This document shows, one piece after another, positions 31,861 through 32,398 of a stretch of DNA of 64,000 nucleotides. Under the pieces are notes generated by a model. The model saw only the letters and a program-made list of their open reading frames with translations, did no database searches and was not told the origin of the DNA. This DNA is from Escherichia coli (lineage in GTDB: Bacteria; Pseudomonadota; Gammaproteobacteria; Enterobacterales; Enterobacteriaceae). Both the position numbers and the translations under genes were made by a program. The stretch lies in assembly GCF_024223415.1 (NCBI RefSeq), contig NZ_CP100500.1, one strand, 5' to 3'. The number at the start of each line of letters is the position of its first letter. Position 1 is the first letter of the stretch.

Positions 31861-32240
31861 AATGAATCCTTTTTCGATTTATGAGAATAAATACTCATTT
31901 AAGAGTGAAAACATTTTGCCTGCAAATGATTATCAGGAAATATAACATTATCGAAGTATTCAAATTAACAACTATTAAATAATATTAAACATTTTTAACG
32001 TAAACATTAAGAATATTCATCTTGTTATCTGTCTGTATTTTAACCAGAATTAAATCAGTATTAGATGCCGTATGAATATCTCGAAATGTTGCTGTGTATC
32101 ACATACAAATCATCACCGCAGGACCATAGTATTTACATAAGGTTTGTCCCCCGGAGGTAGTCATCGCAGCAATCGAGTAAATTAGCTTCACCACGGTATA
32201 TTGTTTCCGTAGAATACCCATAATTATAAGAGAGGTTGTT

Positions 32241-32300
32241 ATGATTGAACGTGAACTGGGGAACTGGAAAGACTTTATCGAAGTTATGCTTCGTAAGTAA
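32241..32300 (+). CDS. ypfM: 19-aa small protein
   Basis: ATG preceded by AGAGAGG RBS; encodes MIERELGNWKDFIEVMLRK, which matches the small protein YpfM as I recall it. Confidence 0.6.
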   Translation: MIERELGNWKDFIEVMLRK

Positions 32301-32360
32301 TTCCTGAGACAAAGTACAAACAGCAAGAACCCGCTGAGCAGGTTCTTAATCGGAAAGTTG

Positions 32361-32395
32361 AAAAAGGCGACACATTAGCATGTCGCCTTTTTTAT
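32361..32395. terminator. bidirectional hairpin terminator between ypfM and acrD
   Basis: A5-ggcgaca-loop-tgtcgcc-T7. Confidence 0.65.
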
Positions 32396-32398
32396 TGC

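Follow-up and report, generated by a model that had tools for sequence, protein, structure and literature searches.

A known small-protein gene, ypfM, and the AT-rich divergent regulatory region that it shares with yffB in Escherichia coli

What occupies the long and very AT-rich stretch between yffB and acrD in Escherichia coli, and does it hold anything beyond the 19-codon gene ypfM? We addressed this question at positions 31861-32398 of a 64,000-nucleotide (nt) stretch of E. coli DNA (RefSeq assembly GCF_024223415.1, contig NZ_CP100500.1), which is referred to here as the window. We are confident that two elements make up the locus: ypfM, a monocistronic small-protein gene, and a divergent regulatory region that it shares with the yffB-dapE-ypfN operon. 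The gene itself is already known: NCBIfam, Pfam and Rfam each have an entry for it, its annotation dates back to the early comparative screens for small RNAs (sRNAs) and small proteins, and mass spectrometry has seen it repeatedly.

ypfM encodes a conserved and translated small protein

The gene lies on the plus strand, 98 bp from the convergent gene acrD.

32241-32300, plus strand: coding sequence of ypfM, 19 codons and a stop codon (MIERELGNWKDFIEVMLRK, then TAA)

The window peptide matched the NCBIfam family NF033843 ('small_YpfM') over residues 1-19 of 19, with 59.2 bits against a cut-off of 33 (E = 2.4e-16). A Pfam search with the 20-residue YpfM query returned zero matches; Pfam PF28148 is recorded on the identical Salmonella YpfM product. 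Intact YpfM carrying formyl-Met has been observed by top-down mass spectrometry at 100% coverage, and also by data-independent acquisition and parallel reaction monitoring, in a 2025 study that noted an earlier proteome detection as well (PMC12529367).

We fetched the orthologous loci of 80 Enterobacterales species with YffB as the anchor. In 73 of these loci, Yersinia and Dickeya included, a YpfM-like open reading frame (ORF) lies upstream of yffB and divergent from it; it is 19 aa long in 71 of the 73. No such ORF was found in Lonsdalea, in the other Erwinia species or in three rearranged loci. Orthologues from three species were as follows.

[Erwinia] mediterraneensis: MIDTEMGNWKEFIEAMLRK
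Dickeya oryzae: MIEIELNNWKSFIDAMLRK
Yersinia nurmii: 20 aa

In Lelliottia nimipressuralis (locus L031, reverse-complement 3235-3327), the YpfM stop codon is lost, lysine 19 is replaced by asparagine (K19N) and the product is 30 aa long (MIERELGNWKDFIEDMLRNDLQEELQEHLI).

Substitutions in ypfM fall where a protein-coding gene tolerates them. Across 54 distinct 60-nt ypfM sequences, the numbers of variable sites at the three codon positions were 7/4/15, and diversity at third positions was about fourfold that of positions 1 and 2. The ratio of nonsynonymous to synonymous diversity (pN/pS) in this set was 0.066/0.474 = 0.14. When ypfM and yffB were compared in the same 53 genomes, pN was 0.054 for ypfM vs 0.152 for yffB. 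The preliminary description of this DNA, made by a model from its letters, had called ypfM a well-formed small gene and had proposed conservation of the peptide among enterobacteria as a check. The curated family match, the published detection by mass spectrometry and the retention of the peptide in 73 of the 80 loci under a low pN/pS bear both points out, and establish ypfM as a real, translated 19-aa gene that is under strong purifying selection across Enterobacterales.

The pattern of conservation points to a particular fold. From Escherichia to Dickeya, 10 of the 19 residues do not vary. The invariant set comprises M1, I2, E5, W9, K10, F12, I13, M16, L17, R18 and K19; position 15 is hypervariable and takes V, G, D, A, N, Q or L. 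When the peptide is drawn as a helical wheel, its invariant hydrophobic residues gather on one face, the variable positions 4 and 15 lie on the polar face, and position 8 flanks it. The hydrophobic moment of the peptide was 0.546, a value equalled by 2.6% of shuffled sequences. YpfM thus probably folds as an amphipathic helix with a conserved face formed by I2, L6, W9, I13 and M16, flanked by F12 and L17, and with a C-terminal RK; this face and the RK would act through binding some larger protein.

ypfM has a conserved proximal promoter and a terminator shared with acrD

The signals that frame the gene on its own strand are the following.

32187..32215, plus strand: P1, the proximal sigma70 promoter of ypfM (TTCACC-17-TAGAAT, from a promoter scan), with a transcription start site (TSS) placed at ~32222
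32222..32240, plus strand: 5' untranslated region (5'UTR) of ypfM, short, with an A-rich ARN-like run and a Shine-Dalgarno sequence
32301..32393, plus strand: 3'UTR of ypfM, which differs in sequence and length between genera
32361..32393, both strands: bidirectional intrinsic terminator common to ypfM and acrD (A5-GGCGACA-CATTAGCA-TGTCGCC-T6)

P1 is listed with identical hexamers in published work (PMC3946193). Its TAGAAT -10 element is nearly invariant among the orthologous loci. Where the element was found, the distance between its end and the ATG is 25 nt in the majority of loci (range 24-27; 38 in Dickeya). Genome-wide data could be placed on the window directly: its alignment with E. coli MG1655 contains zero indels, ypfM being b4606 (2590807-2590866) and the start of yffB lying at 2591247, so that window x = 32399 - (MG1655 coordinate - 2590708), with U00096.2 coordinates converted through an offset of ~1974. 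A sigma70 chromatin immunoprecipitation sequencing (ChIP-seq) peak labelled ypfM, at 2588887/2588903 of U00096.2, corresponds to about window 32246/32230 (PMC3688515 supplements), and is 2.5-fold stronger anaerobically (321.6 vs 816.5; PMC3688515 Table S2). ypfM is probably transcribed mainly from P1, starting at ~32222 and yielding an mRNA of ~170 nt.

The preliminary description had assigned ypfM the ribosome-binding site AGAGAGG, and this sequence is indeed found at 32229-32235, 5 nt 5' of the ATG. The 5'UTR sequence ATAATAATAAGAGAGG is nearly invariant across genera and contains ARN-type triplets. At 32222-32235 the string ATAAT(A/T)ATAAGAGAGG is almost invariant across genera, with ARN-like triplets adjoining the Shine-Dalgarno sequence. 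Judged from their sequence, these triplets are a plausible contact for the distal face of Hfq, as is typical of sRNA-regulated mRNAs.

At the other end of the transcript, the terminator consists of an A5 tract (32361-32365), a stem with an 8-nt loop and a T6 tract (32388-32393). The terminator scan gave a 14-pair hairpin, and the A and T tracts make the element symmetric. Read on the minus strand, the stop codon of acrD is at 32401..32399, and the terminator begins 5 nt beyond it. It can therefore serve both genes. It is kept in 69 of 74 sequences (the window and the 73 loci), with compensatory changes in 6 of the 11 stem pairs. The strong bidirectional terminator proposed in the preliminary description is therefore well founded: the hairpin is symmetric, conserved and adjoins the acrD stop. 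Together, these observations show that ypfM has a conserved TAGAAT -10 element, a strong Shine-Dalgarno sequence and an A/T-flanked terminator that also ends convergent acrD.

A conserved distal module may be a second promoter of ypfM

Further upstream, on the ypfM side of the intergenic region, lies a second block of conserved sequence.

32076..32130, plus strand: distal module, AATATCTCGAAATGTTGC-TGTGT-ATCACATACAAATC...CCATAGT in E. coli; candidate second promoter or regulator site

Its consensus across genera is TATTTCAAAATATTGC-N5-GTCACATAAAATTT-N13-CATAGT. The module was found in 60 of the 73 loci at 155-171 nt from the ypfM ATG (~157 nt in E. coli), while its distance from yffB ranged from 135 to 871 nt and the length of the intergenic region from 292 to 1041 bp (about fourfold). 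Because its distance is fixed to ypfM and variable to yffB, the module belongs to ypfM.

If CATAGT (32125-32130) serves as a -10 element, transcription would start at ~32137, giving ypfM a second, regulated start. Promoters of class II that depend on the CRP/FNR family have their site, a 22-bp dyad (TGTGA-N6-TCACA or TTGAT-N4-ATCAA), centred at -41.5. A conserved sequence of the form TTGCn-N4-nTCAC (32089-32102) has its centre at 32095.5, a position that equals -41.5 only for a TSS 7 nt past CATAGT. Its right half, TCACA, is a perfect and conserved CRP half-site (TGTGA on the other strand); its left half, TTGC(T/A), agrees with the FNR half-site at 3-4 of 5 positions and with that of CRP at 2 of 5, and is at most FNR-like. 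In Salmonella, the predicted transcript lengths are 227 nt by the CATAGT arithmetic, ~219 nt from a scanned promoter TTTACG-18-TATCAT and 146 nt from P1. A Northern band of ~220 nt has been reported there, and its abundance depends on growth phase (PMC2515195). The distal start fits this band better than P1 does, since it predicts 219-227 nt vs 146 nt.

On this evidence, the distal module may be a second, regulated ypfM promoter, at odds that we put somewhere between doubtful and even; it is the only possibly new point of the locus. The fuller reading is more tentative. In it, an activator-dependent distal promoter carrying a hybrid CRP/FNR-type site at -41.5 would produce a longer ypfM mRNA (~260 nt in E. 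coli, ~220 nt in Salmonella) under global carbon or oxygen control, and YpfM would bind a larger protein.

Several observations weigh against parts of our reading of the locus. The distal -10 element CATAGT is accompanied by no usable -35 element, and the left half-site TTGC is a poor match to both the CRP and the FNR consensus. Published FNR ChIP-seq contains no peak at the ypfM-yffB region, and the sigma70 ChIP-seq peak of E. coli is at P1, not at the distal module. We infer the E. coli starts at both P1 and the distal module. As for the peptide, synonymous diversity in the 53 genomes was lower in ypfM than in yffB (pS 0.40 vs 0.61, with a ypfM sample of only 18 codons), which hints at some RNA-level constraint beyond a purely protein-coding reading. 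A test of the obvious candidate partner, the neighbour YffB, gave no support. When YffB was fused to YpfM through a (GGGGS)5 linker and modelled with AlphaFold2, YpfM was helical but unplaced, at a predicted local distance difference test (pLDDT) score of 36-45, and the YffB part was well folded (block means 74-93 pLDDT). The alignment behind this model was shallow, at 38 genome-paired rows, and no contacts were returned, which makes the result a weak negative.

The regulator of the module did not emerge from comparison with known sites. We compared the module by eye with those of CRP, FNR, ArcA, CpxR, PhoP, PhoB, LexA, Cra, CytR, the marbox, sigma32 and sigma54, and none fits convincingly. 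A published Salmonella MarA ChIP motif for ypfM<>yffB (ACCCAATTTGATAAA; locus L083, 2268-2282) maps ~30 bp upstream of the distal module. The E. coli counterpart of that motif, AACCAGAATTAAATC (~32043-32057), does not keep it.

The yffB side of the region carries a mapped promoter and leader

The minus-strand neighbours and the features between yffB and the distal module are as follows.

30373-31500, minus strand: dapE
31504-31860, minus strand: yffB
31861..31941, minus strand: 81-nt 5'UTR of yffB, starting at the published TSS and ending at the ATG of the gene
31939..31953, minus strand: yffB core promoter, with overlapping -10 elements GATAAT (31953..31948) and TGTTATATT (31947..31939)
31954..32075: variable AT-rich spacer, poorly conserved, with a length that differs between genera
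31861..32240: divergent yffB-ypfM intergenic region, 380 bp, its left two-thirds extremely AT-rich
32399-35512, minus strand: acrD, convergent with ypfM, with narQ beyond

The TSS of the operon b2471|b2472|b4547 (yffB-dapE-ypfN) has been mapped by SMRT-Cappable-seq to MG1655 2591166 (PMC6131387 supplement), which is window 31941. The AT-rich leader of 81 nt that follows from this start accounts for part of the stretch that had been taken as non-coding. The yffB promoter block is a conserved footprint across genera, and GATAAT lies 7 nt upstream of the E. coli TSS. The two overlapping -10 elements lie 9 bp apart, and the block corresponds to 2383-2396 of the Salmonella locus (L083), where the counterpart of GATAAT is AACAAT. 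The Salmonella yffB TSS has been reported at -97, together with repression by the sRNA SdsR of a fusion that carries the leader from -97 to +75 (PMC5137417). This start fits the adjacent TGTTATATT (TATATT) element. Apparently, then, E. coli and Salmonella use different elements of one conserved yffB promoter block. Two other candidates for the E. coli yffB promoter were set aside. TATATT as the -10 element, with a TSS at ~31932, is contradicted by the mapped TSS, which fits GATAAT. The pattern-predicted promoter TTCATA-16-TTTAAT (32076..32049; PMC3946193) falls in poorly conserved sequence ~100 bp upstream of the mapped TSS, and is unlikely to be the main promoter.

Transcription of the operon also starts within yffB. 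A second TSS, of dapE-ypfN, has been mapped to MG1655 2591560 (PMC6131387 supplement), which is window 31547, inside yffB; the dapE ATG follows 47 nt further on. A sigma70 ChIP-seq peak at 2589585 (U00096.2) coincides with this start, and the two together indicate that dapE is served by a promoter of its own inside the yffB coding region. The yffB product passed the cut-offs of two models, TIGR01617, 'Spx/MgsR family RNA polymerase-binding regulatory protein' (116.8 vs 75), and the ArsC-family reductase equivalog, and may be annotated either as a reductase or as a regulator.

An AT-rich, variable spacer separates the two promoters

The preliminary description had pointed to a 380-bp, very AT-rich gap and had suggested that such regions often hold sRNAs or H-NS-bound promoters. 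The length is exact (31861-32240), and the AT-richness is exceptional: the gap contains the GC minimum of the entire 64 kb. GC content is 21-29% from 31850 to 32100; the lowest-GC 200-bp stretch is 31864-32063 (0.23 vs a mean of 0.533), and windows as GC-poor as 31880-32079 make up 0.05% of all 200-bp windows. The second most AT-rich stretch of the window is 47065-47264 (GC 0.265), the maeB-eutS intergenic region. Of 5426 complete E. coli genomes, 5425 contain the 538-bp query (31861-32398), with ypfM annotated there in the records listed. In E. coli NZ_CP088131.1 only query bases 1-210 match, the ypfM side being missing or interrupted; ~14 of the 5426 genomes are alike.

Among the orthologous loci the intergenic region is 202 to 1540 bp long. 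Across 41 sequences, profiled in 20-bp windows, identity to the window sequence was mostly 0.36-0.50 in the spacer and 0.37-0.57 at its edge (31941-31970). The ypfM<>yffB spacer has been flagged 'HNS', with divergent promoters, by genomic SELEX (systematic evolution of ligands by exponential enrichment; PMC3946193). Chromatin immunoprecipitation on microarrays (ChIP-chip) gave H-NS intervals at 2588247-2588977 and 2589168-2589958 of U00096.2, and an IHF interval that corresponds to about window 31253-32100 (PMC3688515 Tables S3 and S4). The H-NS intervals map to about window 32156-32886 and 31175-31965, so the most AT-rich core (31965-32156) is flanked, not covered, by them. The AT-rich middle would be a variable spacer bound by H-NS and IHF. 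Because both promoters are active in vivo, the yffB-ypfM region is not silenced. Published data bear out the suggestion of sRNAs or H-NS-bound promoters, through the SELEX flag, the H-NS and IHF ChIP-chip intervals, the sigma70 peak and an Rfam match to STnc250 (below). It needs one refinement: the AT-rich part yielded no sRNA gene of its own, and the only sRNA entry at the locus is the ypfM mRNA.

Alternative readings of the ypfM transcript

The Rfam match raises the question of whether the transcript is itself a regulator.

32280..32399, plus strand: match to Rfam RF01409 STnc250, an Hfq-binding RNA; sub-threshold, at 37.1 bits vs a gathering score of 42 (E = 4.2e-5)
32324..32348, plus strand: 3'UTR hairpin AAGAACC...GGTTCTT, Escherichia-specific (E. 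coli, E. albertii)

The E. coli segment is the positional orthologue of STnc250. In the Salmonella locus fetched through YffB, the model scored 125.3 bits on a segment made up of the final 21 nt of ypfM, its 3'UTR and the terminator. The ypfM transcript could then be a dual-function RNA that encodes YpfM and whose 3' part acts as an Hfq-dependent base-pairing sRNA. The Salmonella orthologue is entered in Rfam as an Hfq-binding sRNA and was enriched fourfold in Hfq co-immunoprecipitation (24 vs 6 reads; PMC2515195), the 3' end has the usual Hfq module of a hairpin followed by a U-tail, and ypfM synonymous sites are unusually conserved. We nevertheless regard a dual function as unlikely. The 3'UTR between stop codon and terminator is the least conserved part of the transcript, with an identity of 0.17-0.44 within 32301-32360 in the profile described above. 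The Escherichia hairpin is replaced at the same place by unrelated hairpins in Citrobacter and Salmonella, in Enterobacter and in other genera, and no conserved single-stranded seed was found upstream of the terminator in the 41 sequences. The low identity and the genus-specific hairpins together argue against a conserved trans-acting sRNA function. In addition, the E. coli sequence falls under the Rfam gathering score, and the discoverers of STnc250 reclassified it as a small mRNA, that is, the ypfM mRNA (PMC2515195). The Hfq association of this mRNA would instead reflect its ARN-rich 5'UTR and its U-tailed terminator, and ypfM would then be a target of sRNAs, not one of them.

Even less likely is a separate sRNA gene, missing from the annotation, inside 31861-32240. 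The stretch is long, AT-rich and non-coding, and the distal module is promoter-like; yet there was no Rfam match upstream of 32173, even at E <= 10, and no terminator-like site from 31861 to 32320. The left part is explained by the mapped yffB leader, and transcription from the distal module would run into ypfM and produce a longer ypfM mRNA, which fits the ~220-nt Salmonella band. A structured long 5'UTR was rejected too, as 32137-32300 folds no better than shuffled sequences (z = -0.2). We are still more sceptical of ypfM as a regulatory mini-ORF of the leader-peptide or attenuator kind, in which translation matters and the peptide does not. Its very small size, its strong Shine-Dalgarno sequence and the hairpins after it would suit such a role, but no same-strand gene lies downstream for it to control, acrD being convergent and the transcript ending at a strong terminator; its amino-acid sequence is under strong purifying selection (pN/pS 0.14), and the peptide accumulates to levels that mass spectrometry can detect. 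Finally, we give next to no credence to the one competing reading frame as a real overlapping gene.

32099..32326, minus strand: 75-aa antisense ORF with a TTG start, spurious

The frame is open for 75 codons. It starts with TTG, has no Shine-Dalgarno sequence, gave no NCBIfam or Pfam match, and is absent from the annotation of the E. coli records inspected. Among the orthologous loci, the longest ORF antisense to ypfM can be as short as 11 aa or as long as 127 aa, and its frame and start change. The preliminary description had thought this ORF probably spurious, and the empty family search and the lack of conserved length or frame agree.

Discussion

We read the locus as ypfM and the regulatory region that it shares with the yffB operon, and regard it as a modest lead for small-protein biology, not a discovery. 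The peptide is conserved beyond its neighbour YffB, and the candidate regulator sites of the upstream module, with the two transcript sizes, offer a concrete handle on the conditions of YpfM expression. If the distal promoter is real, it would put a very conserved amphipathic protein under a global carbon or oxygen signal.

Comparison with known systems places each part of the locus. The spacer resembles the H-NS- and IHF-bound AT-rich divergent promoter regions of E. coli in its 23% GC content, its H-NS flag in SELEX and its overlap with ChIP-chip intervals; it differs in that the H-NS intervals flank the AT core and that the region is not silenced. With STnc250, the E. coli segment shares the locus, the orientation, the first hairpin and the alignment of the terminator, whereas two internal hairpins of Salmonella correspond to one longer Escherichia hairpin, with 37 nt where the model has 13. 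It is this replacement by an Escherichia-specific hairpin that brings E. coli below the STnc250 threshold. Set beside other soluble or regulatory small proteins of E. coli that came from the same comparative approach, such as MntS and AzuC, and beside dual-function RNAs such as Spot 42/SpfP, ypfM is alike in size, in being monocistronic with its own promoter and terminator, in its condition-dependent detection and in the Hfq association of its mRNA, and is set apart by a 3'UTR without a conserved seed. The closest comparison is with the YpfM family itself (b4606; NF033843, PF28148), from which the window gene differs in nothing: its 19 aa are identical, it occupies the same position between acrD and yffB, and it is that gene.

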